From a bacterium (GTDB taxonomy: Bacteria > Pseudomonadota > Alphaproteobacteria > SP197): a DNA stretch of 64,000 bases. The position numbers were made by a program, and so were the translations under genes. Location: the NCBI GenBank assembly GCA_028821455.1, contig JAPPGE010000005.1:103030-167029 (forward strand), written 5' to 3'. Under the pieces are notes generated by a model. It did not search any database. It saw only the letters and a list, made by a program, of their open reading frames with translations, and was not told the DNA's origin. This document shows positions 1 through 42,705 of the stretch, piece by piece (the stretch's first letter is position 1; each line of letters opens with the position of its first letter).

Positions 1-252
1 CCCGAGCTCACCCGACGCCTGAAGGCGATCGGACTGGATGTTCCCGAAAGCGTCGTCAATTTCGTCCTGGTGCGCTTCCCGGACGGCCCTTCCCAGGCCT
101 CGGCCGCGGAGCGGTTCCTGGCGTCGCAGGCCATTCTTGTCCGCGACCTTGGCGCCTACGGAATCCCCGACGGCCTGCGGATCAACATCGGTCTCGACGA
201 CGAGATGGAAGCGCTCATCGCCAGCCTCACCCGCTTCATGGGCAGGACATGA
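1..252 (+). CDS. hisC: histidinol-phosphate aminotransferase, C-terminal fragment (5' end lies outside the window)
   Basis: The frame is open from position 1 to the stop at 250-252. The C-terminal sequence ...NFVLVRFPDG...LRINIGLDDEME matches class-II aminotransferase HisC tails. Its stop overlaps the next start (ATGA). Confidence 0.7.
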   Translation, partial: PELTRRLKAIGLDVPESVVNFVLVRFPDGPSQASAAERFLASQAILVRDLGAYGIPDGLRINIGLDDEMEALIASLTRFMGRT

Positions 253-1136
253 CCCGCGAGCCGCTGTTCGATACGGTCTGTCTGATCGGCATCGGCCTGA
301 TCGGCTCCTCGCTCGCACGGGTCATGCGCCGCAAGGGCCTCGCGCGCCGCATCGTCGCCTGTGCGCGGCGGGACTCAACTCTCGACACGGTCACCAGACT
401 GGGTCTGGCCGACAGGGTGACGAAAGACCACGCCGAGGCCGCCCGCGGCGCCGACCTGGTGGTCATCTCCACGCCAATCGGCACCAACGGCACGATCGCC
501 CGAACCATCGCGCCTGTCCTGGAACCGGGTCAGATCGTCACCGATGTGGGGTCCGTGAAGCAGGCCGTCATCCGCGACGTGGCGCCCGTCATTCCGGAGG
601 GCGTTCACTTTGTTCCCGGCCATCCTCTTGCCGGCACGGAGGAGTCGGGTCCGGAAAGCGGCTTCGACACCCTGTTCGAGGGTCGCTGGTGCGTGCTGAC
701 GCCCCTTGACGGCACCGCTCCCGAAGCCATCGAAAGGGTCTCCGAACTGTGGCGCCGTGCCGGATCCATGATCGATATCATCGATGCCGAACACCACGAC
801 TGGGTGATGGCGCTGACCTCCCATCTGCCGACTCTGATCGCCTTCAACATCGTCGGGACCGTCGCCGACATGGAGAACCACACCAGGCAGGAGGTCATCA
901 AGTATTCGGCGAGCGGATTCAGGGACTTCACAAGAATCGCCGCCCAGGATCCCGTGATGTGGCGCGATGTCTACCTCAACAATCGCGAAGCCGTCCTCGA
1001 AATGCTCCAGCGATTCAGCGAGGATCTCTCCAGACTCCAACGCGCCATTCGCTGGGGCGAGGGCGAGGAACTCGAGGATCTTTTCCGCAGAAGCCGGGAT
1101 ATCCGCCGCGGCATCATTGACGCAGGCCAGGCCTGA
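249..1136 (+). CDS. tyrC: cyclohexadienyl/prephenate (arogenate) dehydrogenase
   Basis: 295 aa with an N-terminal Rossmann motif (CLIGIGLIGSS) and a conserved HLP/TyrA core (GHPLAG, SHLPT). A hisC-tyrC operon is typical of alphaproteobacteria. Confidence 0.85.
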   Translation: MTREPLFDTVCLIGIGLIGSSLARVMRRKGLARRIVACARRDSTLDTVTRLGLADRVTKDHAEAARGADLVVISTPIGTNGTIARTIAPVLEPGQIVTDVGSVKQAVIRDVAPVIPEGVHFVPGHPLAGTEESGPESGFDTLFEGRWCVLTPLDGTAPEAIERVSELWRRAGSMIDIIDAEHHDWVMALTSHLPTLIAFNIVGTVADMENHTRQEVIKYSASGFRDFTRIAAQDPVMWRDVYLNNREAVLEMLQRFSEDLSRLQRAIRWGEGEELEDLFRRSRDIRRGIIDAGQA

Positions 1137-1137
1137 C

Positions 1138-1175
1138 CGTCATCCCTTGCAGGACCGTTCCCGCAAGGGATGACG
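1138..1175. terminator. GC-rich 13 bp-stem hairpin between convergent tyrC and the SBP gene (putative bidirectional terminator; no clear U-tract)
   Basis: CGTCATCCCTTGC-(12 nt loop)-GCAAGGGATGACG lies immediately after the tyrC stop, between convergent genes. Confidence 0.4.
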
Positions 1176-1186
1176 TTGAGGAAGTG

Positions 1187-2347
1187 CTACAGACCCACTC
1201 TTCCGATCCATGCATTTGAAGACCAGGTCTGCGAGGCGCCTGCGCTGTCGAGCGCCTCGAGGATCGACAGGTCGACGCCGTCCTCGGAAGAGGCGAACGA
1301 GTCGATGACACCGGCCTCCATGTAGACCTCGCCAAAGAGATCCCAGGTGGCCGCAAGATAGCCGGCCGCACAGTCAGGCTCGCCGCCGAACAGCATGTCA
1401 CCCCAGCCGCTTGGCTCCGCCGGCGGCTCCGGTGCTCCTTCCGGCAGACTCTGGCAGACAGGCTTGCCGTCGCCTACACCGAATGCGCCGAGATTCTGGT
1501 CAAGATTCAGCATGATCGCGCCGTACTGCGTTTCGCGTACATCCGCGACAGGCCAGTCGAGACCCTGGGCCACCAGATCGTTCCCTTCTTCGGGATTGGC
1601 CTTCCACCAGTCCACAGCTTCAAACCACGCCCTCAGGAGTTCCGTGGCGACATCGGGCTTGTCCGCCAGCCAGTTCTCGTTGCAGGCGATGGACTCGGAG
1701 ATGAGACCGCGTTCCCAGGTCCGGTCCGTCAGGCTGGTCTTGAGAATACGGGAACCGGCGCGGTCGGCCGACTGGGATGAAAATGGCTTGTAGTTGACAT
1801 CGATGTCGAGCTGACCGCTGGTGAATGCGGCGGCGCTGTCCTGGGGAAGCATGATCTTGTGATCGAGGGCGTCGAACGCGATGCCCGCCTTCTTCAGCGT
1901 GAGCAGCATCCACATGTGATTGAGGAAGGCGAAGTCGGCGCCGTAGCTCTTTCCCGGAAAGTCGTCGACGGATTCAATGGACTCATCGACGATCATCTCG
2001 TCGAGCCCGTACGACATCGCCGGTATGGCGATGACCTTGACGGGAACGCCCGAGGCGCGGGCCACGACAACCGAATCGAGGGTATTGAGCATGCACTGGA
2101 CCGTTCCGGTCGTCAGCGCCGCATTCTTTGCGGTGATGTCCTCGATAATCCGTATGTTGAGATCGATATCGCGGGCAAGACCCCGTTCCTGGACGATGTA
2201 CCAGGGTGCATAGGGCGAAAACGATATGATCGCGATGTCCACCTGCTCGGCCGCCCGGGCCGGTTGCGGCGCGATGCCGTGAATGCCGGCGACAAGGGCC
2301 GCCAGCAGAATCGGCCCCACAAGTCGTGAAACGCTCTTGAATGTCAT
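1187..2347 (-). CDS. ABC transporter periplasmic substrate-binding protein (NMT1/THI5-like, aliphatic sulfonate/nitrate/taurine family)
   Basis: 386 aa with an N-terminal signal peptide (LLAALVAGIHGIAPQPARA) and an SsuA/TauA-like fold signature. There is no cognate permease or ATPase adjacent. Confidence 0.6.
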   Translation of the reverse strand: MTFKSVSRLVGPILLAALVAGIHGIAPQPARAAEQVDIAIISFSPYAPWYIVQERGLARDIDLNIRIIEDITAKNAALTTGTVQCMLNTLDSVVVARASGVPVKVIAIPAMSYGLDEMIVDESIESVDDFPGKSYGADFAFLNHMWMLLTLKKAGIAFDALDHKIMLPQDSAAAFTSGQLDIDVNYKPFSSQSADRAGSRILKTSLTDRTWERGLISESIACNENWLADKPDVATELLRAWFEAVDWWKANPEEGNDLVAQGLDWPVADVRETQYGAIMLNLDQNLGAFGVGDGKPVCQSLPEGAPEPPAEPSGWGDMLFGGEPDCAAGYLAATWDLFGEVYMEAGVIDSFASSEDGVDLSILEALDSAGASQTWSSNAWIGRVGL

Positions 2348-3222
2348 GATGCCTCCTCGGTTTGCCTGTTGTCTGCAAGTATGGCGCCTCGTTCGAGACG
2401 GGCAATGATGTCGTCGAGCTGCTGAAGTGTCCGGTAGGTCAGTGTCAGCTTCCCTCTTTCGCCCTTCGAAGTGATCGCAACCTTCAGGCCGGTTGCCTCG
2501 CCAAGCCGCCTTTCGAGCGCCCGGACGTCGGGATCGACGGACCTTGTCGACCTGCTGCCACTCCCGCGTTGACGGTGATTGCGCACCAGTGCCTCGGTCT
2601 CGCGCACCGACAGTCCTTCCTTCAGGATGCGCGCGGCAAGTGCCTCGGGTTGGCGGGTCCCCAGCAAGGCTCGGCCGTGGCCTGCACTGAGCTCACCCTC
2701 GTTGATCAGCTTGCGCACAGGCTCGGGAAGCTGGAGGAGGCGCAGCGTGTTGGCGACATGGACCCTGCTCTTGCCGACAAGGACCGCCATGTCTTCCTGG
2801 GTCAGGGCGAACTCCTCGTTGAGACGGCGGTAGCCTGCCGCCTCCTCGACAGGGCCGAGGTCCTCGCGCTGCAGGTTCTCGACCAGTCCGTGCTCCAGGG
2901 CCTCGCGGTCACTCATGTCCTTGACGATAACCGGAACATCGTGGAGTCGGGCCCGCTGCGCCGCCCGCCAGCGCCTCTCACCGGCTACGATCTCCATCAT
3001 GCCGTCGGCAGCGGGCCTGACGATGATGGGCTGCATCATGCCGCTGTCCGTAAGGGACCGGGCGAGGCCGTCGATGTCCTCATCGTTGAATCGGGTGCGG
3101 GGCTGAAAGCGACCGGGCTTGAGTTCCGAGATTGAGACAGTCCGCATGCCGGAGGCGGATGTCCTTGCCGGCGTTCCGATGAGCGCGTCGAGGCCGCGTC
3201 CAAGACTTCTAGGTCTCGTCAT
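2344..3222 (-). CDS. parB: chromosome partitioning protein ParB
   Basis: 292 aa with the ParB box GERRWRAA, an HTH region and C-terminal dimerisation. It is immediately downstream of parA. Confidence 0.9.
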   Translation of the reverse strand: MTRPRSLGRGLDALIGTPARTSASGMRTVSISELKPGRFQPRTRFNDEDIDGLARSLTDSGMMQPIIVRPAADGMMEIVAGERRWRAAQRARLHDVPVIVKDMSDREALEHGLVENLQREDLGPVEEAAGYRRLNEEFALTQEDMAVLVGKSRVHVANTLRLLQLPEPVRKLINEGELSAGHGRALLGTRQPEALAARILKEGLSVRETEALVRNHRQRGSGSRSTRSVDPDVRALERRLGEATGLKVAITSKGERGKLTLTYRTLQQLDDIIARLERGAILADNRQTEEAS

Positions 3223-4022
3223 GCGGCACTCTTCGACTGCGTGGCATGGCGGCGCAGGAATTCACCTGCCAGGCGCACGTAGGCCCGCGTTCCCGCACAC
3301 TCAATATCGTATAAAAGCACCGGCTTACCGTGTGACGGCGCCTCGCTCACCCTGACGTTGCGCGGAATGAGCGTACGATAGACGAGATCGCCCATGACGC
3401 GGCGCACATCCCGTTCCACCTCGCGGGACAGGCGGTTCCGGCGATCGAACATCGTGAGCACGATCCCGCCGATATGCAGTCCCGGATTGTGGGTGCCGGC
3501 AATCCTCTCGATGGTGTCGAGCAGGAGCGAGAGACCTTCCAGGGCGAAGAACTCGCACTGCATGGGCACCAGGACCTCGTCGGCGGCCACCAGGGCGTTG
3601 AGCGTCAACAGGCTGAGTGACGGCGGACAGTCGACTAGCACGAACTCATGCCCCGCCATCACCTCGGAAAGCGCCGTTGCGAGAACGCTCTGGCGTTCGG
3701 AAACGTCAACCAGTTCGACATCGGCGCCGGAAAGATCGGCGGTCGCCGGAATGAGGGACAATCCCGGTATCATGGTGGGCGCCGGCGTCACCTTTTCCCC
3801 GTTCAGCAGGTCGTATGTCGTCGCGGTTCTGGCCGAAGGCTCGAAACCCAGACCCGTGCTGGCATTTCCCTGGGCGTCCGCATCGACGACGAGAACCTTG
3901 TGTCCCGTGGCGGCAAAGGCGGTTGCAAGGTTGATGACGGTGGTCGTCTTGCCCACCCCGCCCTTCTGGTTGGCCACGGCCACCACCAGGGGCCGCGCAA
4001 GGCGATCACGGTCGAGAGTCAT
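3219..4022 (-). CDS. parA: chromosome partitioning ATPase ParA/Soj
   Basis: Contains the deviant Walker A motif KGGVGKTT. The start is set at the internal ATG ([22 protein letters not shown]) preceded by AGGA. The ORF-track start at 4061 would overlap rsmG by 56 nt. Confidence 0.85.
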   Translation of the reverse strand: MTLDRDRLARPLVVAVANQKGGVGKTTTVINLATAFAATGHKVLVVDADAQGNASTGLGFEPSARTATTYDLLNGEKVTPAPTMIPGLSLIPATADLSGADVELVDVSERQSVLATALSEVMAGHEFVLVDCPPSLSLLTLNALVAADEVLVPMQCEFFALEGLSLLLDTIERIAGTHNPGLHIGGIVLTMFDRRNRLSREVERDVRRVMGDLVYRTLIPRNVRVSEAPSHGKPVLLYDIECAGTRAYVRLAGEFLRRHATQSKSAA

Positions 4023-4620
4023 GGTGTATCCTGTTGATGACCAGAACGCTGGATTGCTCATCCGAAAGACTGGGGTGTCGCGAGAACCACATGTGCCAGT
4101 GACGGGCGGCGGACTTCAGTTCCTCCTCCACCGACCTTCCCTTGGGGAAAATGGCAACGGAGCCCTCGCCCAGAAAGGGAGCCGTGACGGGCAGGAGAAC
4201 ATCGAGGGGAGCCAGGGCACGGGCCGTCACGACATCGGCCGATGCGCGAGGCAGATCCTCCACGCGCATGCGGTGAATGCCGACATCGACATCGCAGACA
4301 TGGGCTGCGGCATGAAGAAACGCCGCCTTGCTCTCGTCCCGCTCCACCATCTCGACGCCGGCAACCCCCATGATCGCAAGAATCAGGCCGGGCAGACCGG
4401 CACCGGAACCGAGATCGACGAGCCGCCGGCACGTCGGCGGCACATAGCGGGCAATCTGCCCGCAATCGAGAACGTGCCGCGACCATATCTCGTCAACAGT
4501 TCCGGGGCCGATCAGCTTGAGGCGCGATTGCCATTCACCGAGTACGGCAACATAGGCGGCGAGGCGCTCGGATGTCTCCGGCGACGCGCCAAGCAGCCGG
4601 CACACCTCGTCGCGGGTCAC
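4006..4620 (-). CDS. rsmG: 16S rRNA (guanine527-N7)-methyltransferase RsmG (GidB)
   Basis: The C-terminal 204 aa of the ORF-track ORF, with a GTG start that is in GTGA overlap with the mnmG stop. The SAM motif [10 protein letters not shown] is present, and the gene sits in the gidA-gidB-parAB cluster. Confidence 0.85.
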
Positions 4621-6479
4621 GCCGCATCCCGCCTGACGTGGCGGAGCAGGGCCTGCAGGGCGGCAGGTGTCACTCCGGGAAGCCGTGCTGCCTGTCCAAG
4701 CGTGGCCGGGCGGGCGGCTGACATCGTTTCGCGCATTTCCGCAGACAGTCCGCCAATGCGGGCGTAGTCGAGACCGGGAGGAAGATCGAGGGCCTCGTCC
4801 CGGCGGAACGCTGCGATGTCCGCCTCCATGCGGCCCAGGTAACCCCGGTAGCGGCCGGCAATTCTCACCTGTTCCATGGCGTGTTCGGGCCACGACGCGA
4901 TCTCCGGCCACAGGGCCAGCAGTCGTCGATCGTCCCCTGAGGCCGAAGCCGCGAGGTCGAACAGGTTTCGCCGACGGCCATCCCGATTGACATCGAACCC
5001 CGCGGCGCGCGCTTCGTCGGGACTGACCTGTAACGCGCAAGCCCGTGTCATGGCCGTCTCGACCTCCTGTCGGCGTCGGGAGAATGCGCGCCATCGGGTC
5101 TCCCCGACACACCCGGCCTCGCGGCCCTTTGCGGTAAGACGCAGGTCGGCATTGTCGGCCCTCAGGATGAGACGGTACTCCGCCCGGCTCGTGAACATGC
5201 GGTAGGGTTCACACGTCCCCCTCGTGACGAGATCGTCGATCATGACGCCCAGATAGGCTTCTGCCCGGTCAAATCGCACGCCTGGAAGACCTCCCGCGCA
5301 GCGCGCCGCGTTGATTCCGGCGACCAGCCCCTGACCCGCCGCCTCCTCGTATCCCGTGGTGCCGTTGATCTGGCCGGCCAGGAACAAACCTGGTATCCGC
5401 CTTGCCTGCAGCGTGTGATCGAGCTGGCGCGGATCGACGTAGTCATACTCGATGGCATAGCCGTGACGCAGGATGTGCGCCTTGGCAAGTCCCGGAATCG
5501 TGGCGATAAATTTCTCCTGTACATCGCGTGGCAACGACGTCGAGATGCCGTTCGGGTAGACCGTGGCAGTCCGGAGCCCCTCGGGCTCCAGAAAGATCCG
5601 GTGGCTCTCCCGGTCGCCAAACCGCACCACCTTGTCCTCGATGGACGGGCAGTATCGGGGACCGGTTCCGTCGATGCGGCCGGAGTAGACGGGCGCCCGG
5701 TCAAGGTTGGCGCGAATGACGTCGTGCGTGGCCTTCGTGGTGGCCGTCACATGACAGGGAACCTGCGGCACGGTGATGGCGCCGGTCAGCCACGAGAACG
5801 GTTGCGGAGGATCATCTCCGGGCTGAACCTCGAGGGCGGCATGGTCGATGGTCCGTCCATCGATCCGCGGCGGCGTCCCCGTCTTCAGCCTTCCAAGGGA
5901 AAAACGGTGCCTTTCGAGCGTTGCGGCTAGGGCCACGGCGGCGTCATCATCGATCCGTCCCGCCGGCCAGCGCTCGTCGCCGATGTGAATCATCCCGCGC
6001 AAAAATGTTCCGGTGGTGAGAATGACCGCGCGACCACGACAGAGCCTGCCGTCGGCAAGCCTGACACCGGCAATCTCTCCGGCATGGTTGATAGCCAGGT
6101 CGGAGGCTTCGCCTTCGAGGATGTCAAGTTCCTGTTGATTTTCAAGGAGTTCCTGGACCGTCTGCGCATAGAGCGACCGGTCGGCCTGGGCCCTGGGGCC
6201 TCGAACCGCCGGTCCCTTGCTGGCGTTGAGAAGACGGAACTGGATGCCCGAGCGATCGATGGCCAGCCCCATGATGCCGTCCAGGGCATCGATCTCGCGC
6301 ACTAGGTGCCCCTTGCCTAGCCCACCGATGGCGGGATTGCACGACATCGCGCCGATGGTCGAACGGCGCAGGGTCACAAGAAGCGTCGCGGCGCCACATC
6401 GCGCCGCCGCTGCCGCCGCCTCGGTGCCGGCATGCCCGCCGCCAATGACTATGACATCGTGAACGAAGGTGTGCGTCAT
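4617..6479 (-). CDS. mnmG: tRNA uridine-5-carboxymethylaminomethyl synthesis enzyme MnmG (GidA)
   Basis: The FAD motif [15 protein letters not shown] follows the start chosen here ([15 protein letters not shown]). The ORF-track start at 6527 is a GTG lying inside a parS palindrome, so the shorter start is preferred. Confidence 0.85.
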
Positions 6480-6519
6480 GCCTGGAATGTAGTGATGGCG
6501 CTCCGGTGGGTCAAAGCGT

Positions 6520-6535
6520 TGTTTCACGTGAAACT
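6520..6535. other. parS centromere-like site (15/16 match to TGTTTCACGTGAAACA)
   Basis: The sequence TGTTTCACGTGAAACT is read directly between the mnmE stop and the mnmG start. Confidence 0.75.
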
Positions 6536-6536
6536 G

Positions 6537-7844
6537 TCACTTTCCGATGCAGAACTCCGAGAAGATCACGTCGAGAAGGTCCTCCACATCCACCCTGCCG
6601 GTGAGTCGTCCCAGTGCCGTGGCTGCCACACGCAGGTCCTCGGCTGCCAGCGTCACGTCGCCTGCATCCGGACCCCGATAGCGCACCAAGGCGTCCGCGA
6701 CCTGGACAAGCGCAGCCCTGTGCCGGGTCCGCGACGGCGACAGCCCCGCTCCCTGCCAGGCCAGCCGGAAGCGTTGCGCCATGACCTCGACGAGATGATC
6801 GATCCCCTCCCCGGTCTTCGCCGAAAGGCCCGGGATGCCCGGGGGAGGACGGGCGAGGTCAGCCTTTCCGGCCACGACAAGCGCATCCTCATCGCAACGG
6901 GACTCGATGGCGGGCCAGGTCTCCTCCCATCGGCTGGCATCGGCAACGAGCAGCGTCAGGTCAGCCGTCTCCGCTCTCTTCAGCGCCCGCCTGATCCCTT
7001 CTCCCTCGACGCCTTGCGGCACCTCCCGCAACCCTGCGGTGTCGACAAGGGATACGGCAAAGCCGGCGATGTCCATGGTCACCTCGACCGTGTCCCGTGT
7101 TGTCCCCTCCTCCGCAGAGACAATGGCCGCGTCATGTCCGGCGAGGGCGTTGAGAAGACTCGACTTGCCGACATTGGGCGCGCCGAGAATGACGACGCTG
7201 AGACCCTCGCGCAGCCGTTCGCCACGGCGTCCGTCATCGAGGTGGGCGCGAACCTCCTCTTCGAGAACGGTCACCGCTGCCCGGTTGTCGTCGAGGAGTC
7301 CCGCCGGCAATTCCTCGTCGGGAAAGTCGATCACGGCCTCGAGACGCGCCATGGCGTCGACAAGGCGCTGACGCCACTCGTCATAGAGAGCCGAATGCAA
7401 CCCCTGGAGCTGATCGAGAGCCTGACTGCGCTGGCGTGACGTGTCCGCGGCGACAAGGTCCGCCACCGCCTCCGCCTCCACGAGGTCGATTCTGCCATTC
7501 AGCACCGCCCGCCTGGTGAATTCCCCCGGTTCGGCGGGCCGCACGCCAGGCACCGATGCAAGGGCATCGAGAACGCCGTACACCACCGCGCGTCCGCCGT
7601 GGACGTGGAATTCCGCCACATCCTCTCCCGTGACGGTGGCCGGCGCCGGAAACCATAGAACCAGGGATTGATCGATCACGTCTCCCGATCGACTGTCCTG
7701 AAGGTGGCGCAGGACGGCCTGCCGGGCGGCAGGCAGATCCCTGCCGCTGAGGAGCCTCACGGTCTCTCCGGCAGCCGGGCCCGACACCCGGATCACGGCG
7801 ATGGCGGCCCGGCCGGGGGCCGTGGCCAACGCGAAGATGGTCAC
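6537..7844 (-). CDS. mnmE: tRNA modification GTPase MnmE (TrmE)
   Basis: 435 aa with the G-domain motifs GAPNVGKSSLLN and DTAGLR and the C-terminal CIGK tetrapeptide. It has a GTG start. Confidence 0.9.
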   Translation of the reverse strand: MTIFALATAPGRAAIAVIRVSGPAAGETVRLLSGRDLPAARQAVLRHLQDSRSGDVIDQSLVLWFPAPATVTGEDVAEFHVHGGRAVVYGVLDALASVPGVRPAEPGEFTRRAVLNGRIDLVEAEAVADLVAADTSRQRSQALDQLQGLHSALYDEWRQRLVDAMARLEAVIDFPDEELPAGLLDDNRAAVTVLEEEVRAHLDDGRRGERLREGLSVVILGAPNVGKSSLLNALAGHDAAIVSAEEGTTRDTVEVTMDIAGFAVSLVDTAGLREVPQGVEGEGIRRALKRAETADLTLLVADASRWEETWPAIESRCDEDALVVAGKADLARPPPGIPGLSAKTGEGIDHLVEVMAQRFRLAWQGAGLSPSRTRHRAALVQVADALVRYRGPDAGDVTLAAEDLRVAATALGRLTGRVDVEDLLDVIFSEFCIGK

Positions 7845-28982: not shown

Positions 28983-29379
28983 GACCGGCATGATCCGTCG
29001 AATTGGCACCGCATTACCACATCAAAGATTCATTCATAAAAGTAGGTGGTAATGATGGGTCTTGTGCATCATGTGGATGCAAGACTGTACTGGTGACTGT
29101 CAACAGTCCGGCTCTCCAGGAAGACATTGTCCGGGGTGCCTGTGCACTGTTGGAAGCGAATCGCGACGCAGAGCCAGTGGGCCTGCTGCGTGACATGTGG
29201 AACGGTGGACGGATGAGTGTGGATCACCGGTTTGTGTGCACGATATTCACCATGTCCCGGTTCCGTTTGTCCCCGGGCAAGAACGGTCGCACACATGGCG
29301 TCCAGGAGTGTGATACCCTGCGCCGGCTATCTCGGGAGCCGGTCGTTCACAGGGTGATCAGCCTTTCTTCCCCATATCC
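28983..29379. other. candidate chromosomal replication origin (oriC) in the hemE/DUF299 divergent intergenic region
   Basis: DnaA-box-like 9-mers GCATCCACA (revcomp of 29072-29080), TGATCCACA (revcomp of 29218-29226) and a weaker one at 29196-29204. There is an AT-rich 25 nt block flanked by the 9 bp inverted repeat CATTACCAC/GTGGTAATG (29012-29054). This hemE-DUF299 position is the conserved alphaproteobacterial origin location. Confidence 0.5.
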
Positions 29380-30198
29380 ATGACCAGGTTTCATGTGCAC
29401 CTCATCTCCGACGCGACAGGCGAGACAGTCCTTGCGGTGGGTCGTGCTGCGGTTGCCCAGTTCGAGAATGTCGATGTGGTCGAGCATGTGTGGACCCTGG
29501 TCCGGACGTCGCGGCAGATTGACAGGATTCTCAAGGCTCTCGAATCCAGCCCCGGAATCGTCATCTTCACGCTGGTCAATCCGGAACGCCGCGACCAGTT
29601 GGTCAAGGGATGCCAGAATCTCGGGATCGTTTCGGTACCGCTTCTCGATCCTGTTCTTGCCGCCCTGTCAGGTGTTCTCGACCAGCCGGTCAAGGGACAG
29701 CCCGGAGGGCAGCATGCCCTCAACGCAGACTATTTCGACAGGGTCGAGGCCATCCAGTTCGTCGTCCGCCATGACGATGGCCAGTCGCCCCACGATCTCG
29801 ACGAAGCCGATGTCATCGTTGTCGGTGTGTCACGCACCTCCAAGACGCCGACCTGCTTCTACCTCGCCAACCGGGGCGTCAAGGCAGCCAATGTGCCCAT
29901 CGTTCCGGGTATGGCACCTCCGGTGGAACTTCTCCAGGCTACCAGGCCGCTCATCGTTGCCCTCAGTCAGAACATGGAACGCCTGGTCCAGGTCCGGCGC
30001 AACCGCATGAAGCTTCTTCACCAGGACGAGGAAAGCGACTACATCGAGCCGGATGCGGTTCGCCGCGAGATGGCCGAGGCCCGCAGGCTTTACGAGGAAA
30101 GGGGCTGGCCGGTGATCGACGTCACACGGCGTTCCATCGAGGAAACCGCCGCGGCCATTCTTCAGTTCTACAGGGAGCGGTTCGGCTCGCTTCCCTGA
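29380..30198 (+). CDS. pyruvate,phosphate dikinase / PEP synthase regulatory protein family (DUF299, kinase/pyrophosphorylase)
   Basis: 272 aa with the P-loop GVSRTSKTPT. It is the homolog of the origin-adjacent DUF299 gene in other alphaproteobacteria. Confidence 0.8.
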   Translation: MTRFHVHLISDATGETVLAVGRAAVAQFENVDVVEHVWTLVRTSRQIDRILKALESSPGIVIFTLVNPERRDQLVKGCQNLGIVSVPLLDPVLAALSGVLDQPVKGQPGGQHALNADYFDRVEAIQFVVRHDDGQSPHDLDEADVIVVGVSRTSKTPTCFYLANRGVKAANVPIVPGMAPPVELLQATRPLIVALSQNMERLVQVRRNRMKLLHQDEESDYIEPDAVRREMAEARRLYEERGWPVIDVTRRSIEETAAAILQFYRERFGSLP

Positions 30199-34774: not shown

Positions 34775-35827
34775 CTATTCGGCGTACCAGGCCTTCGTTT
34801 CCTCCCAGATCTCCAGGAAGGTCTCCCGCGTCTCGTCCGAGAGCGGAGCCATGAACTGGAGATTGGCCGTGGCGGCGGGATCGCCGAGCACCTGACGGTT
34901 GAAGGCGTCTTCGGGCAACTGGTTCATGGCCACGCCATTGGCCGAAGCGGGTGCTCCGACCTCGGTGTCCCAGCGCACGAAATGGTCCGGACTGACCATG
35001 TAGTCGATGAACTGGAGCGCTCCGGCCGGATTGGCCGAGCCGGCGGCAAGGGAGAGGCCGTCGAGCCAGGCGATGGCGCCTTCCTTGGGAATGAGATAGC
35101 CGACCGGCAGCCCGAAGGCCTTGGCGCTGCGCGAGGCCGAACCCGACCAGTAGACCGCGACATCGAAGGCGTCGGCAGCGAACTCCTTGTTCCACTCGTC
35201 CTCCGATGACCAGAACGTGCGGATCTGCGGCTTGAGATCGCGCAGTTTCTGGCGGATCGCATCGAGGTCTTCCGGCGCGTTCATGTTCTGACCGGTGGCG
35301 AGTGCGGCAAGGTAGACGTTCTCGACGGAATCGTCCCGCACGGCGACGTTGCCGGCATGGGCCGGATCCCACAGGATCTCGATGGAGTTGCCGGGATCGA
35401 CTTCCTCGGTGTCATAGGCAATCGAGGTCAGGCCCCAGGTCCAGGCGACGCCGTAGAGGTCTCCGTCGAGCCTGAACTCCGCAGCATCCCTCAAGCCCGG
35501 CGAAAGGTCGCCGAAGTTGGAGATGGCCGCGCTGTCGATGGGCTGGATGAGGCCTTCCTCGGCGGCCTGGATGGTGAAGGCGGAGTTGATCAGCACGACG
35601 TCGTAGGCGCCGGGACTGGTGCGCAGCTTGGTCAGCATTTCCTGTTCGGAATTGAAGTAGTCGTGCACCACCGTGTGGCCCGTCGCCGCCTCGAAGGCCT
35701 CGACACCCCAGGCCTCGTCGGTCCCGTATCCCTGCCAGTTCAGCACCCTGACTTCGGCGGCGGCCAGCGGTTGGGCTGCCACCGCGGCGGCCAGCAATGC
35801 AGAGGCAATCATTCCTGATATGCGCAT
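34775..35827 (-). CDS. ABC transporter periplasmic substrate-binding protein (PotD/PotF polyamine/quaternary-amine family)
   Basis: 350 aa with a signal peptide (MRISGMIASALLAAAVAAQPLAAAE). It is the first gene of the transporter operon. Confidence 0.8.
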   Translation of the reverse strand: MRISGMIASALLAAAVAAQPLAAAEVRVLNWQGYGTDEAWGVEAFEAATGHTVVHDYFNSEQEMLTKLRTSPGAYDVVLINSAFTIQAAEEGLIQPIDSAAISNFGDLSPGLRDAAEFRLDGDLYGVAWTWGLTSIAYDTEEVDPGNSIEILWDPAHAGNVAVRDDSVENVYLAALATGQNMNAPEDLDAIRQKLRDLKPQIRTFWSSEDEWNKEFAADAFDVAVYWSGSASRSAKAFGLPVGYLIPKEGAIAWLDGLSLAAGSANPAGALQFIDYMVSPDHFVRWDTEVGAPASANGVAMNQLPEDAFNRQVLGDPAATANLQFMAPLSDETRETFLEIWEETKAWYAE

Positions 35828-35976
35828 TGTTCTTACGTCTCCCCGGAGATGATGTTGTGGCAGAGGACGCTGTCACAGCATTCGCCGGTCGTCAACGCAG
35901 GCGCTCTCTTGCGGCCCGGGGCCTGGCAGGCGCTCCGGGGCGTGTGATAGACCGGCCAAAGGCGGTGAAGACGAGC

Positions 35977-38900
35977 ATGATGAAGCGACACCTGCGTCCC
36001 GGGCTCTACGAGGATCTCGTGACCTCGTCCCTGAAGCGGGAAATCGGGATCCTGCTCGAGGACAACTGGTCGGTCGAGACAGGCATGGCCGAAGAGAACC
36101 GGCGTGCGGATGTTCTGGCCCGCCACGTCGCGGACCTGCTGCGCCGCGCCCTCGACGGAATGTCCGCAGAGCGCCAGATCGAACTGGCAAACCGTCTGCT
36201 CGGAATGCTTGGCAACTACGGGGTGCCGGAGGATGAACAGGTCGCCGGGACGGCAGAATTGCTGCTTTCCGTCTTCCGGAGCCAGGGACTCGAGGATCAG
36301 CCGGCGGCAGCGGAGCGGCCGATACGATCGCTGCGCGACACGGGTCTTCTCGTCAATGGCCGGCGCGACGTGCAGGTCTCCGGCGAGATCGTTCGCGAGA
36401 TACCGAGCGCCGACGGCATCGACCTCCTTTGCGCCTTTGTCCGCTATTCGGGACTGCGGCTGTTCCAACGGGAGCTGGGGGAGAGAATTGCGGCCGGTGT
36501 CCCGGTACGCGTCATCACCACCGTCTACACGGGGACGACGGAACGGCGGGCTCTCGATGCACTCCACGAACTGGGGGCCAAGGTCAAGGTCTCCTTTGAT
36601 GTCGCCCGCACCCGTCTCCATGCCAAGGCGTGGCTGTTCCGAAGGGAGAGCGGTCACCATACCGCCTACATCGGGTCTTCGAACCTCACGCACACGGCCC
36701 AGGTGGACGGCCTCGAGTGGAACGTGCGGGTCAGCGCCACCCGCAATCCGGAGGTGATCGACAGGTTCCAGGCAACCTTCGAGCAGTACTGGCAGGAGTC
36801 CGAGTTCGAGACCTATGACCCGGAATGCGATGGCCCGCGTGTTGATGAAGCGGGCAAAAGGGAGCGTGGCGACAAGCCGGGTGTCACGCTCTACATCGAT
36901 GCCGTTGCCAAACCCCACCAGGAAGCCGTTCTCGAGGCCCTTGAAGCCGAACGGAGGCGGGGTCATCACCGCAACCTCGTGGTCGCCGCCACGGGAACGG
37001 GAAAGACATGGGTCGCTGCCTTCGATTTCCGCAGGCTGCGCCAGGACCACCAGGTTCAATCCCTGCTGTTCATTGCTCACCGCAGGGAAATCCTTTCCCA
37101 GAGTCAGCAGGTTTTCCAGATCGTCCTGCGTGATTCCTCGTTTGGCGAACAGCTGGTTGCCGGCAAGCGCCCGCAGGAGGGACGGCACGTCTTTGCCTCC
37201 GTGCAGTCCCTGCAGAACCGCATTGACGGTATCGATCCGTCAGGATTCGATGTCGTCATCATCGATGAGTTCCACCACGCCGCAGCCAGCAGCTACGAGC
37301 GCCTGCTCGAGCGTCTGCGGCCCCGGTTTCTCCTTGGTCTGACGGCCACACCGGAACGGACCGACGGCAAGTCGGTCCTCGACTGGTTTGATGGCCGCAT
37401 CGCCTCCGAATCAAGGCTCTGGGACGCCCTCGATCAAGGACTCCTGTGCCCCTTCCACTACTTCGGGATCAACGACGGCACCGACCTCTCCGGCGTGCGG
37501 TTCCAGCAGGGACGTTACGTGGCAGGCGAGCTCGATACTCTCTTTACCGGTGATCATGTTCGAGCACACCGGATTGTTCAGGCCGTTGTCGACCATGTTC
37601 CCGACCCGCAAAGGATGCGTGCCCTGGGATTTTGCGCCGGGGTCGGCCATGCGCACTTCATGGCCGAGCGGTTTTCCCGCGAGGGACTGAAAGCAGCGGC
37701 CCTCGATGCGGCGACACCGCATCCGGAACGTGACAGGGCCCTCACCGGCCTGCGCACGGGCGATCTCCACATCATCTTCACCGTCGATCTCTTCAACGAG
37801 GGTGTCGATCTTCCCGAAGTCGATACCGTTCTCATGCTGCGTCCGACCGAGAGCGCCACCGTTTTTCTGCAGCAGCTTGGCAGGGGATTGCGCTGGGCCG
37901 AGGGCAAGCAGGTGCTGACCGTTCTCGATTTCGTCGGTCAGGCCCGGCGCGAATACCGCTTCGACATGCGCTACCAGGCTCTCATCGGCGGTACCCGCCA
38001 ACAGGTCAGGAAGGCCGTCGAGGAGAACTTCCCCTATCTGCCGCCCGGGTGCGCGCTCAGACTGGACCGCATCGCCAGAAAGGCCGTGCTCGACAACCTG
38101 AGCCATGCCCTGAGGACAGCGCGCAGTCATCTCGTGGAGGACCTTCGCGCCCTTGGCCCCTCGGCCCGGCGCATTCGTCAAGGCTTCGGGCGCCGACCTT
38201 CTCGACATCTACCGCAGACCGTCCTCCGGCCATTGTTTCACGGACCTTCTTGAGCGGGCGGGTTTCACCTCCCGATCCACGGAAAGATCACTCATGAAGG
38301 CGGTGGGCCGCATGCTTCACGTGGATGACGGCGAACGACTGGAAGCCTGGCGTTCCATCCTGACGGACGACGTCACGGTGGGCCAGCTTCCTCCTCGACA
38401 GCGCCGCCTCGCATGGATGTTTTTCGGTCTGCTGGCCGGCGACAGGCCTCTCGGCGATGTCGATGAGGTCTTTGCAGCCGTCCGCGCCCGGTCCGACATG
38501 CGTGACGAGCTGATCGACCTCCTCGACATTCTCGCAGACCGCTCACGTACCCTTGCCCAGCCGCTCGAAGGCGGGGACGTGAATCCGCTTGCCAGTCATG
38601 CCACCTATTCGCTTGTGGAGATCACCGCCGCCTATGGCCTGACCGATGCCAGGGGTGTTCTCAAGAGGCCACGCGAAGGCGTTCTCTGGGAGAAAGCGTC
38701 AGGGACGGACCTGCTGTTCATCACCCTCGAGAAGTCGGAGAAGGACTATGCGCCTTCGGTCCGCTATGCCGACTATCCGATTTCTCCACAGCTCTTCCAC
38801 TGGGAGACCCAGAACACGACGTCACCCGACTCCGGCACCGGACAGAGGTACATCAGCGGGACGGGGAAGGTTGTTCTCTTCGTGCGTGAGCGCAAGCGCG

Positions 38901-39049
38901 ATGACCGGAACGAGACACGGGCCTATCATTGTCTCGGATACGCCAGCTGCCGGCGCCACGAGTCATCGCGGCCGATGAAGATCGTCTGGGCACTTGAGCG
39001 CATGATGCCGGGATGGCTCTACCAGGCCGGCAAGGTGGTCGCCGGTTGA
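35977..39049 (+). pseudogene. PLD-family nuclease / SF2 (DEAH, ResIII-type) helicase / DUF3427 fusion gene, interrupted by a +1 frameshift near 38155-38170
   Basis: The N-terminal PLD HxK motif is RLHAKAWLFRRESG...GSSNLT. The helicase motifs are VVAATGTGKT (I) and DEFHH (II). The DUF3427-like C-terminal domain continues in the +1 frame (TTG-initiated ORF 38153-39049, ...GADLLDIYRRPSS...). The frame switch is at the GGCCCC run at 38156-38160. Confidence 0.65.
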
Positions 39050-41954: not shown

Positions 41955-42042
41955 ATTCCGCCAGGTATGCCCGAACCAGACGTCAACATGGCGCATGACG
42001 ATCGGCCAGGTTGAACGTCCCGTCTTGCCGACAATCACTTGT

Positions 42043-42705
42043 CTACATGCAGTGGCGTTCCGCAGTTTCCGGCGCATGGCGTGTCCGGTACTCCGACAGC
42101 TGCCGCGCGACTTCTTCACCGAGGGCGCGGAATATGTCGGAAGCCGATGCGCGGAACACGCTCTCAAGACATCCAGTCGGCGGGCATTGGGCTGGAAGCG
42201 CGACTTCGACCACAGGCGCGGTTCCGCCAATAGACGTGCCCGATTGGACATCGTAGATGCTGATATCCGGGTCGACTCTGAGGAATTGCGGCCGGTCGTG
42301 CCATATCCTCACGTACACCCTCACGGTGATCAGGAAGGGAATGCAGGTGCCGGCCTCGTCCGCGGAGAGGTGCATCGCTCCGGAGAGAAAATCCTCGTCC
42401 AGCCACCGGCCCCAAGGGCCCTCTCCACCGCTGTCGAGGTCGAACGCGCCCTCGAACGCTTCCTCACCCATCGCGCGAAAGCCGTATTGCGCCAGGGCTT
42501 GTTCAAGGTTCACAAATGCGGTCTCGCGGAACAACGGGGAATCGCGCCGAATCAGATGGGGGTTGACAGCCTCTTCGTTGCCCACGACGAGGACCGGAAT
42601 CGCGACATCTTCCATGTCTGAAGCAACAGCCACTCCGGCAGACAGCCCGAGCGCAAGGGCAGCTGCAATCAAGGGGCTCATTCTCCGGTCAAGCCGCCTT
42701 CCCAT
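42043..42705 (-). CDS. exported hypothetical protein (signal peptide; no recognisable domain)
   Basis: The N-terminus MGRRLDRRMSPLIAAALALGLSAGVAVASD is a classic signal peptide, with GGAGG upstream of the 42705 start. An alternative start at 42681 would be in ATGA overlap with the antitoxin stop. Confidence 0.5.
   Translation of the reverse strand: MGRRLDRRMSPLIAAALALGLSAGVAVASDMEDVAIPVLVVGNEEAVNPHLIRRDSPLFRETAFVNLEQALAQYGFRAMGEEAFEGAFDLDSGGEGPWGRWLDEDFLSGAMHLSADEAGTCIPFLITVRVYVRIWHDRPQFLRVDPDISIYDVQSGTSIGGTAPVVEVALPAQCPPTGCLESVFRASASDIFRALGEEVARQLSEYRTRHAPETAERHCM

Follow-up and report, generated by a model that had tools for sequence, protein, structure and literature searches.

A SauUSI-family type IV restriction gene, probably inactivated by a 5-bp deletion, in an alphaproteobacterial contig

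What is a nuclease-helicase gene that reads as two overlapping ORFs: a defence gene that has been disabled, an intact gene that appears broken in the assembly, or a working pair of genes? The question is raised by positions 35977-39049 (plus strand) of the window, i.e., the 64-kb stretch of contig analyzed here, where a protein of about 1025 aa, composed of a PLD nuclease, an SF2 ATPase and a DUF3427 domain, is encoded as two such ORFs. An earlier interpretation made from the nucleotides alone (the sequence-only reading) had offered a pseudogenized defence gene, a sequencing error in a homopolymer and a split gene as its three options, and had likened the protein to Hna.

Architecture, setting and family of the protein

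The restriction gene begins with an ATG at 35977, which is also the start of the intact homologues L001-L003 (L numbers denote homologous loci), and ends with a stop codon at 39047-39049; the limits given in the sequence-only reading are thus correct. ORF1 and ORF2 overlap by 101 nt. The features of the gene and its upstream region are as follows:

35828-35976 (no strand): divergent intergenic region between the solute-binding-protein gene of an ABC transporter and the restriction gene (ORF list)
35977-38253 (plus): ORF1, PLD nuclease, SF2 ATPase and start of the coupler (Pfam, PADLOC, SauUSI alignment)
36472-36792 (plus): PLD-family nuclease domain (Pfam PLDc_2, E 2.7e-11)
36910-37896 (plus): SF2 helicase-like ATPase (Pfam ResIII, E 2.9e-36; Helicase_C, E 6.6e-15)
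38153-39049 (plus): ORF2, remaining alpha-helical coupler and SRA-fold target-recognition domain, DUF3427 (Pfam, PADLOC, AlphaFold/Foldseek)
38717-38803 (plus): predicted 5-methylcytosine pocket, ORF2 residues F189, I190, D207 and W217 (SauUSI alignment)

The gene occupies a slot between an ABC-transporter operon, whose solute-binding-protein gene lies at 34775-35827 on the minus strand, and cobC/cobS/cobT. The transporter and cobalamin neighbours had been recognized in the sequence-only reading, which considered the site a plausible island position; this latter suggestion did not hold. The GC content of the gene (0.62-0.65) is the same as that of its flanks, and the same syntenic slot is occupied in relatives down to 82% protein identity, which together rule out a recently acquired genomic island. 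The locus is a conserved chromosomal position and forms no compositional island. The promoter is presumably located in the intergenic region, where a consensus scan of 35828-35976 detected one weak sigma-70-like site only, on the minus strand.

In ORF1, the PLDc_2, ResIII and Helicase_C matches cover aa 166-272, 312-461 and 546-640, respectively, and ORF2, which comprises 298 codons from a TTG, matches DUF3427 (E 1.5e-18), in keeping with the domain order that had been anticipated. The motifs named in the same reading are also present in the translation: the nuclease domain contains the catalytic HxK residues H215 (36619-36621) and K217 (36625-36627), followed by IGSSNLT, and the ATPase contains VVAATGTGKT (Walker A GTGKT at 36994-37008) and DEFHH (37264-37278), in addition to TATPER and QQLGRGLR. 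In the PDB alignment, H215/K217 line up with H119/K121 of SauUSI, residues of the nuclease motif named in PMC7913695, and GTGKT, DEFHH, TATPER and QQLGRGLR align with their SauUSI counterparts. The acidic residue of the SauUSI H(X)K(X)4E motif is replaced by Arg in the window copy and by Arg or His across the clade.

The AlphaFold model of ORF2 (pLDDT 84.9, pTM 0.79) retrieved SauUSI as the top Foldseek match (7clg_A, E 2.3e-8), followed by AbaSI, SUVH6, SUVH9, MspJI and TagI. In SauUSI, DUF3427 is an SRA-fold reader of 5mC and 5hmC, and its pocket residues have been named as F841, I842, D858 and W868 (PMC7913695). These align with F189, I190, D207 and W217 of ORF2, although at the sequence level this alignment is weak (domain i-Evalue 26) and leans on the fold match. 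The four residues are invariant or at least 90% conserved among family members (n=43). Judging from homology and the conserved pocket, the intact enzyme may recognize 5mC or 5hmC, a specificity extrapolated from SauUSI, with which ORF2 shares only 16% identity when the structures are aligned.

The best-scoring defence model was the PADLOC/REBASE-type mREase_IV model PDLC03659, which matched ORF1 with 682 bits (model positions 11-637 of 945, E 2.8e-205) and ORF2 with 174 bits (positions 650-939, E 9.2e-52). Jointly, the two ORFs cover positions 11-939, with 12 positions uncovered between the matches, at the junction. The best PDB match was SauUSI of Staphylococcus aureus USA300 (7CLG, chain 7clg_A, E 7.7e-84), of which residues 31-612 were aligned to ORF1 (match span 124-708). 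The PADLOC check proposed earlier therefore supports the supposed defence role for both ORFs; the window gene is an ordinary member of a known family, whose clade is already included in curated defence-system models. The proposed likeness to Hna gave way to this assignment, and no Hna model occurs among the best 25 of the 28 PADLOC matches (E <= 0.01). Mokosh had rightly been dismissed from the outset: the sole related match is a marginal one to the MkoB PLD domain, with E 2.3e-6 as against E 2.8e-205 for mREase_IV. Hna and Mokosh resemble the window protein in being single-protein or compact nuclease-helicase defence systems, but neither has a DUF3427/SRA reader. Conversely, MspJI, AbaSI, TagI/ScoA3IV and YenY4I share the modified-cytosine reader fold with ORF2 (PMC6765204), but in these enzymes the reader is paired with a PD-(D/E)XK or HNH nuclease, with neither an ATPase motor nor ATP-dependent translocation.

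Like SauUSI, the window protein consists of four parts in the same order (PLD nuclease, SF2 ATPase, helical coupler and SRA-fold DUF3427 reader), carries HxK, Walker A, DExH, TATPER and QxxGRxxR motifs, and is encoded with no companion methyltransferase. Unlike SauUSI, it is about 70 residues longer at the N-terminus, its host is a high-GC alphaproteobacterium and its gene is frameshifted. Neither a motif scan nor tblastn with the PF00145 C5-methyltransferase detected a companion methyltransferase beside the gene or elsewhere in the 64-kb window, as expected for a type IV enzyme. A regex match to PPCQVFS at 29660 was discarded, as it falls in a spurious plus-strand ORF opposite a Rieske oxygenase gene.

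The family trait that the window copy lacks is the presence of all domains on one polypeptide. The best 120 family matches are all single proteins of about 1014-1144 aa that contain every domain, and PDLC03659 models a single polypeptide, whereas in the window a 5-bp deletion has spread the match over two ORFs that lie in different frames. Homologues at 59-67% identity are distributed across phyla. What the window holds is a disrupted, not a functional, member of the SauUSI family.

Nature and age of the frame change

Three-frame translation places the switch from frame 1 to frame 2 within the ORF overlap, 38153-38253. The +1 change noted in the sequence-only reading is thus confirmed in the assembled sequence; its location, a C-run at 38156-38160, is not. 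The intact L003 has the same CCCC run as the window has at 38157-38160, 7 nt upstream of the gap, such that a homopolymer slip was rejected. The nucleotide alignment that had been advised for placing the indel (here to L001, L002, L003, L007 and L008) revealed that the window is without 5 bp (GGCTT) between 38167 and 38168, with the following features:

38167-38170 (plus): site of the proposed inactivating lesion (nucleotide alignments, microhomology enumeration)
38168-38253 (plus): out-of-frame ORF1 tail, RIRQGFGRRPSRHLPQTVLRPLFHGPS, followed by a stop codon (three-frame translation)

The placement of the deletion is ambiguous over a 3-nt GGC microhomology (equivalents GCTTG, CTTGG and TTGGC). 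Codons R731-L732 are partly lost, and a +1 frameshift results. The 758 codons of ORF1 thus comprise 731 native residues, ending with the first ~20 residues of the coupler, and a 27-residue out-of-frame tail before the premature stop. Frame 2 of 38168-38253 encodes native coupler sequence, and ORF2 is native from 38168 (G733). In three records with 96% protein identity, the gene is a single intact ORF (1025-1026 aa) in identical synteny.

The gap could have been introduced by sequencing, polishing or MAG consensus (e.g., a minority haplotype or a mis-polished site), the gene being intact in the organism. Such an artefact would agree with the functional appearance of both halves, which have dN/dS values of about 0.21, no stop codons and conserved pocket residues, and with the fact that the deletion allele occurs in no other record while the 96%-identity relatives are intact. 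An exact-pattern scan of JGI metagenomes gave neither allele, and the exact ORF2 product is absent from the gene collection searched. Against an artefact, no coding indel other than the 5-bp gap breaks a frame in ~14 kb compared with relatives; four other small indels all fall between called genes, and the eight flanking genes are all intact. The assembly is therefore not generally indel-prone, and general genome decay was rejected on the same grounds. Moreover, the common sequencing platforms do not typically err by dropping 5 bp outside a homopolymer. Sister genomes carry lesions at this locus that cannot be errors (an IS insertion, a gene replacement and a 266-bp insertion), from which it follows that true inactivation is common here. 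We therefore consider an artefact unlikely; the gap, which lies outside a homopolymer, is flanked by GGC and is accompanied by intergenic indels and intact neighbours only, is likely to be a real mutation.

On balance, we favour, with a probability of roughly 0.7, the interpretation that a chromosomal gene for an ATP-dependent type IV (modification-dependent) restriction endonuclease of the SauUSI family has recently been disabled by a 5-bp deletion, flanked by microhomology, within the coupler region. The inactivation appears to be recent, because both halves have the same low dN/dS and the residues of the 5mC pocket have been retained. The window's own branch carries 23 synonymous and 17 non-synonymous changes, nine of the latter representing a linker allele common to L008; this cluster of nine seemingly window-specific replacements (aa 279-299) was consequently not counted as new mutations. 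The dN/dS and branch counts rule out an old pseudogene. ORF2 displays no decay at all, as would be expected equally of an artefact and of a very recent mutation.

Could the two ORFs instead form a functional system, in which the nuclease-motor of ORF1 and the coupler/reader of ORF2 act in trans? Some SauUSI-like systems do encode the specificity domain as a separate nearby protein (Lutz et al. 2019, PMC6765204) and thus provide natural precedents. The Pfam DUF3427 match begins just downstream of the break, ORF2 folds confidently alone in silico, and a GGAGG is located 12 nt upstream of the TTG at 38153. This GGAGG, however, is part of the gene's own Val-Glu-Asp codons at a spacing longer than optimal, the start is a TTG and the ORFs overlap by as much as 101 nt. 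Furthermore, the break falls inside the coupler that has been proposed to relay recognition to the ATPase in SauUSI (PMC7913695), and the split derives from a 5-bp deletion relative to the 96%-identity relatives, hence the arrangement is not conserved.

The sequence-only reading had recognized that homologues split at the same place would imply a genuine two-gene system. Among 83 loci there is no conserved split: leaving aside copies truncated by a contig end or broken independently, each gives one full-length match. A natural split was also sought with ORF2 alone as query, and the three matches followed (L084, L085 and L086) are each independently broken or truncated. In L084, the frame is lost through a 1-nt deletion of its own, 13 nt upstream of where the window copy is broken, a closeness that is not meaningful because the search selected proteins starting where ORF2 starts. 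L085, next to an AbiEii gene, is a remnant that lacks its 5' part. The ~300-aa "standalone DUF3427" calls examined arose where the gene caller restarted at a conserved internal Met of a broken or truncated copy, which again argues against a two-piece enzyme; we consider such an enzyme very improbable. Calls of this kind merit suspicion in annotation, and ORF1 and ORF2 are best reported as one pseudogene.

Programmed ribosomal frameshifting would restore the full-length protein by the very +1 change that is needed, in a G/C-rich stretch. Every intact homologue is single-frame, however, and the site is a deletion relative to relatives rather than a conserved slippery motif, with no conserved stimulatory element seen; the chance of such recoding appears negligible. 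The pseudogenized defence gene is thus the one of the three original options that stands, the homopolymer error having lost its rationale with the 5-bp deletion, and the split gene being at odds with single-frame homologues.

Predicted consequence of the deletion

The domain map and mechanism of SauUSI have been described (PMC7913695, PMC3141236, bioRxiv 10.1101/2025.10.16.682607). By analogy, the intact enzyme would be a homodimer joined via its N-terminal PLD nuclease domains, and its C-terminal SRA-fold domain would flip out and recognize 5-methyl- or 5-hydroxymethyl-cytosine in incoming DNA. The recognition signal would then pass through the helical coupler to the SF2 ATPase and lead to translocation along the DNA, upon which the PLD dimer would cut, and finally shred, the modified molecule; host DNA would be spared because it lacks the modification. 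In the deletion allele, translation would end after residue 731 and 27 junk residues instead of running on to a full-length product of ~113 kDa, yielding a nuclease-motor with neither coupler nor reader; the stranded reader would lack a credible start for its own translation. Methyl-directed restriction is expected to be lost. A published SauUSI truncation that removes both coupler and reader was not found in the literature. Natural loss-of-function sauUSI alleles are known in S. aureus (strain RN4220). In PMC3141236, RN4220 is described only as a permissive laboratory strain.

Recurrent inactivation in sister genomes

Five of the 11 syntenic copies of the restriction gene are broken, each by a different lesion, and the eight flanking genes are never broken (P = 0.0033). 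The lesions in the sister genomes consist of an additional G at aa ~294 (L008), an IS4/IS5 insertion at aa ~646 (L041), a Peptidase_M23 gene in place of aa 208-567 (L058) and a 266-bp insertion with an IS110-type fragment at aa ~565 (L086). For L008 (OZ219917.1), the change involves a single nucleotide within an A/G-rich stretch, and could be an error in its own right. Counting the loss in the window, this gene has been inactivated independently at least five times at a single chromosomal position in closely related MAGs; the host clade probably comprises sponge-associated bacteria, represented by MAGs labelled Alphaproteobacteria. The clade's complete genomes include OZ219747, OZ243917, OZ219917, OZ220705, CBDAUG01 and CBDBNO01. 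Such recurrent loss points to gene-specific relaxed or negative selection and not to general genome decay. By itself, the window gene matters little, being a recognizable disabled copy of a characterized defence enzyme family. The more interesting point is evolutionary, namely that one gene in one slot has been inactivated repeatedly by unrelated lesions while its neighbours remained intact.

A speculative extension, which we regard as doubtful, is that the repeated knock-outs reflect positive selection in symbionts to lose 5mC-dependent restriction, driven either by acquired cytosine methyltransferases, which would render the enzyme self-toxic, or by a benefit of methylated DNA exchanged among co-resident symbionts; in a still less likely variant, the frameshifted allele would work as a two-piece enzyme in trans. 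Sponge microbiomes have been reported to be methyltransferase-rich and gene-exchanging (PMC8163846), and selected loss, if true, would provide a natural example of modification-dependent restriction pitted against such a community. Self-toxicity from a nearby C5-methyltransferase was rejected for the window, none having been found in its 64 kb. More distant lineages contain further broken copies, one of them located 4 kb from two C5-methyltransferase ORFs.

Domain organization and family of the interrupted gene

The gene under study consists of two overlapping open reading frames, whose features are as follows:

35977-38253, plus strand: ORF1, frame 1, with an ATG at 35977 supported by homologues (the open frame extends upstream of it) and a stop at 38251-38253
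residues 166-272 of ORF1, plus strand: PLDc_2 (Pfam)
residues 312-461 of ORF1, plus strand: ResIII (Pfam)
residues 546-640 of ORF1, plus strand: Helicase_C (Pfam)
38153-39049, plus strand: ORF2, frame 2, with a TTG at 38153 and a stop at 39047-39049
within ORF2, plus strand: DUF3427 (Pfam)

The domain architecture and frame change proposed in the sequence-only reading are borne out by the ORF coordinates and by Pfam E-values far beyond chance, and the motifs cited there, VVAATGTGKT, DEFHH and (in the PLD domain) HxK, are all present. Its likening of the protein to the Hna family was not upheld, as the PADLOC scores favour mREase_IV. In the PADLOC library, model PDLC03659 has 945 positions, of which 11-637 align with ORF1 (E = 2.8e-205, 682 bits) and 650-939 with ORF2 (E = 9.2e-52), so that at the sequence level the predicted family is unambiguous in PADLOC: a type IV methyl-directed restriction enzyme. 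Among the 25 PADLOC matches listed there is no Hna model, and the sole Mokosh-related hit is a marginal one to MkoB, via the PLD domain. NCBIfam offers no equivalog for the protein.

The conceptually repaired protein has as its top PDB sequence match 7clg_A (953 aa, E = 7.7e-84), the crystal structure of SauUSI (PMC7913695), an ATP-dependent type IV restriction endonuclease of S. aureus. In SauUSI the PLD nuclease occupies residues 1-191; an SF2 helicase-like ATPase comes next, then an alpha-helical coupler (618-805), and the chain ends in a target-recognition domain of SRA fold (806-953) (PMC7913695). The enzyme cuts DNA that contains S5mCNGS or S5hmCNGS and is not accompanied by a methylase (PMC3141236, PMC7913695). 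The top 120 homologue hits are all single proteins of about 1014-1144 aa with every domain present, the two highest-ranking being 96% identical to the repaired query. The family is already known, and the copy in the window is a new member of it, albeit a disabled one.

The putative reader domain was assessed by modelling ORF2 with AlphaFold from 43 family sequences (mean pLDDT 84.9, pTM 0.79); in the model a helical bundle precedes a beta-rich domain. In a Foldseek search of the PDB its sole significant match was SauUSI (E = 2.3e-8, probability 1.0), and the runners-up (AbaSI, SUVH6, SUVH9, MspJI and TagI) are all SRA-type readers of modified cytosine. The SauUSI pocket residues F841, I842, D858 and W868 correspond in the HMMER alignment to F189, I190, D207 and W217 of ORF2, which are invariant or nearly so across the family.

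Site and type of the lesion

Gene order is common to the window and three intact copies (L001, L002 and L003, 96% protein identity): an ABC-transporter ATPase, two permeases and a binding protein (minus strand); this gene; cobC and cobS (minus strand); and cobT. This shared order, together with a GC content (0.62-0.65) no different from that of the flanks, speaks against the island position suggested earlier.

Nucleotide alignment with these three copies reveals one frame-breaking indel, the absence of five bases (GGCTT) between 38167 and 38168; the gap is also seen against two further relatives, L007 (91%) and L008 (94%). Because GGC flanks both sides, the deleted block can be written in four ways, and a 5-bp gap so flanked has the signature of a putative microhomology-mediated deletion. 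The C-run at 38157-38160, where a slip had been proposed, is unaltered relative to the intact L003. Of the options offered in the sequence-only reading, pseudogenization is probably the right one. With the five bases put back, the gene encodes a protein of 1025 aa (...DLRALGPSARLGAFVKASGADLLDIY...); unrepaired, ORF1 runs to residue 731, adds 27 out-of-frame residues and ends. The alignment of window residue 708 with SauUSI residue 612 places the break in the early part of the coupler.

For SauUSI, dimer formation, recognition of flipped 5mC or 5hmC, ATPase activation, translocation and cutting have been demonstrated (PMC7913695; bioRxiv 10.1101/2025.10.16.682607). By analogy, the intact enzyme of the window family would dimerize via its PLD domains, its SRA domain would recognize a flipped 5mC or 5hmC, and the coupler would relay this recognition and switch on the ATPase; the enzyme would translocate directionally along DNA with looping, and the PLD dimer would cut repeatedly, shredding the modified DNA. 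The window allele retains a nuclease-motor without coupler and reader, so that the ATPase-activating recognition step is missing, and methyl-directed restriction is expected to be lost. We found no published SauUSI truncation of this kind, with coupler and reader removed.

That ORF1 and ORF2 instead form a genuine, functional two-gene system appears highly unlikely. The specificity domain is a separate neighbouring protein in some SauUSI-like systems (Lutz et al. 2019, PMC6765204), but the only start of ORF2 is a TTG, and the GGAGG 12 nt upstream of it is made up of the gene's own Val-Glu-Asp codons. A search with ORF2 only returned C-terminal fragments throughout, including a group of about 296-300 aa starting almost where ORF2 does. 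This word-indexed search recovered none of the full-length proteins from the earlier family search; its length distribution is therefore no evidence that standalone DUF3427 proteins predominate. Those of the proteins of about 296-300 aa that were inspected are gene-caller restarts, beginning at an internal Met that the family conserves (consensus F-M-R) and where the window has Val. In L084, a more distant locus, the helicase part is present upstream in another frame, owing to an independent 1-nt deletion (CTT-GCCCC versus CTCGGCCCC in L050, 91% identical), 13 nt upstream of the window lesion. This proximity is no sign of a mutational hotspot, as the search had selected for that start position. 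Joining of the two frames by programmed frameshifting has a negligible probability.

Recurrent disruption and the reality of the deletion

In a family scan restricted to one genome per species (80 loci), synteny with the window at 82-94% protein identity was found in six (L004, L005, L007, L008, L041 and L058), and L086, found via a fragment hit, is likewise syntenic. Five of the 11 syntenic loci carry broken copies, with five different lesions:

window: 5-bp deletion at residue 731
L008: extra G at about residue 294
L041: IS4/IS5-family element (DDE_Tnp_1 and DUF4096), CTGA-flanked, inserted at about residue 646
L058: residues 208-567 replaced by a Peptidase_M23 gene on the minus strand
L086: 266-bp insertion with an IS110-type transposase fragment at about residue 565

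Across the 11 loci the eight flanking genes show zero disruptions, save where a 100-N scaffold gap or the end of a locus cuts a copy; if lesions are assumed to be uniform per unit length, the chance of all five falling in this gene is 0.0033. Among more distant loci, L056 is truncated after residue 640, L085 is a 5'-truncated remnant adjoining AbiEii, and L084 is frameshifted. The modest interest of the case lies in this gene-specific recurrent inactivation rather than in the gene itself.

We also considered whether the 5-bp gap is an artefact, not real in the organism, which we judge unlikely. In its favour, the two parts of the gene each have a dN/dS of about 0.21 in comparison with relatives; with neither half decayed, the lesion is either very recent or not real. 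Against it, losing 5 bp where there is no homopolymer is atypical of sequencing-platform errors, the four other indels found against the relatives in about 14 kb compared (near 29137, 31398, 34701 and 40487) are all intergenic, all eight flanking genes in the window are intact, and in sister lineages the same gene bears lesions impossible as errors. A real mutation is therefore favoured.

The window's own branch carries 23 synonymous and 17 non-synonymous changes, 9 of the latter belonging to a linker allele (residues 279-299) that is shared with L008 and not new, so that amino-acid changes specific to the window look more numerous than they are. In this linker between nuclease and ATPase (36811-36873) the window matches L008, resembles L041 and differs from its closest relatives, L001-L003 and L007, which suggests that the segment was recombined or is an ancestral polymorphism.

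Host context and neighbouring variation

The related records are MAGs whose names (IRC, COS and RHO bin prefixes, 'ROBB21' ENA assemblies, Candidatus Poriferihabitaceae) suggest a sponge origin, and the window itself probably shares it. The names fit the sponge genera of Robbins et al. 2021 (PMC8163846), who described sponge symbionts as enriched in restriction-modification genes. Homologues at 59-67% protein identity (L009-L055) come from MAGs whose labels span at least six phylum-level groups (Alphaproteobacteria, Gammaproteobacteria/Arenicellales, Binatia, Thermodesulfobacteriota, Acidobacteria and Poriferihabitaceae), and those of cultured Streptosporangiaceae reach just ~45%. This distribution suggests that the gene has passed laterally between co-resident bacteria, probably ones living with sponges.

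The 64-kb window encodes no C5-methyltransferase. In L084 (positions 1-7401; ENA ERZ24894577 ctg498034l) two PF00145 C5 DNA-methylase ORFs are found some 4 kb from the frameshifted homologue (56% identity), and the interval holds genes for a SAM-methyltransferase, a Fic protein and an HNH_4 protein. The juxtaposition fits the idea of a gain of cytosine methylation selecting for loss of a 5mC-dependent nuclease.

Directly downstream of the intact homologue in L004 (12182-16893; OZ219747.1), a 4.7-kb insertion lies between a duplicated cobC/cobS segment and encodes proteins of 693 aa (weak PIN_4, E = 7e-4) and 420 aa (P-loop, BrxC/BrxD, E = 3.5e-6), neither of which has a PADLOC match. It may be an uncharacterized defence-like two-gene module, which would suggest the 3' flank of the restriction gene as an insertion hotspot. 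In L007 (11091-12514) and L008 (11089-12620) an MFS_1 transporter gene (about 440 aa, E = 6.5e-33) has been inserted between the restriction gene and cobC, with about 85-100 bp of the restriction gene 3' end and flank duplicated on each side. Further along the window, alignment to relatives is poor or absent at 41955-42692 and on to about 47400; this segment holds a PIN toxin gene in L001 and L003, accompanied in L001 by a PhdYeFM antitoxin and followed in L003 by an SbcCD-like pair made up of a Metallophos gene and an AAA_27 gene (about 1157 aa).
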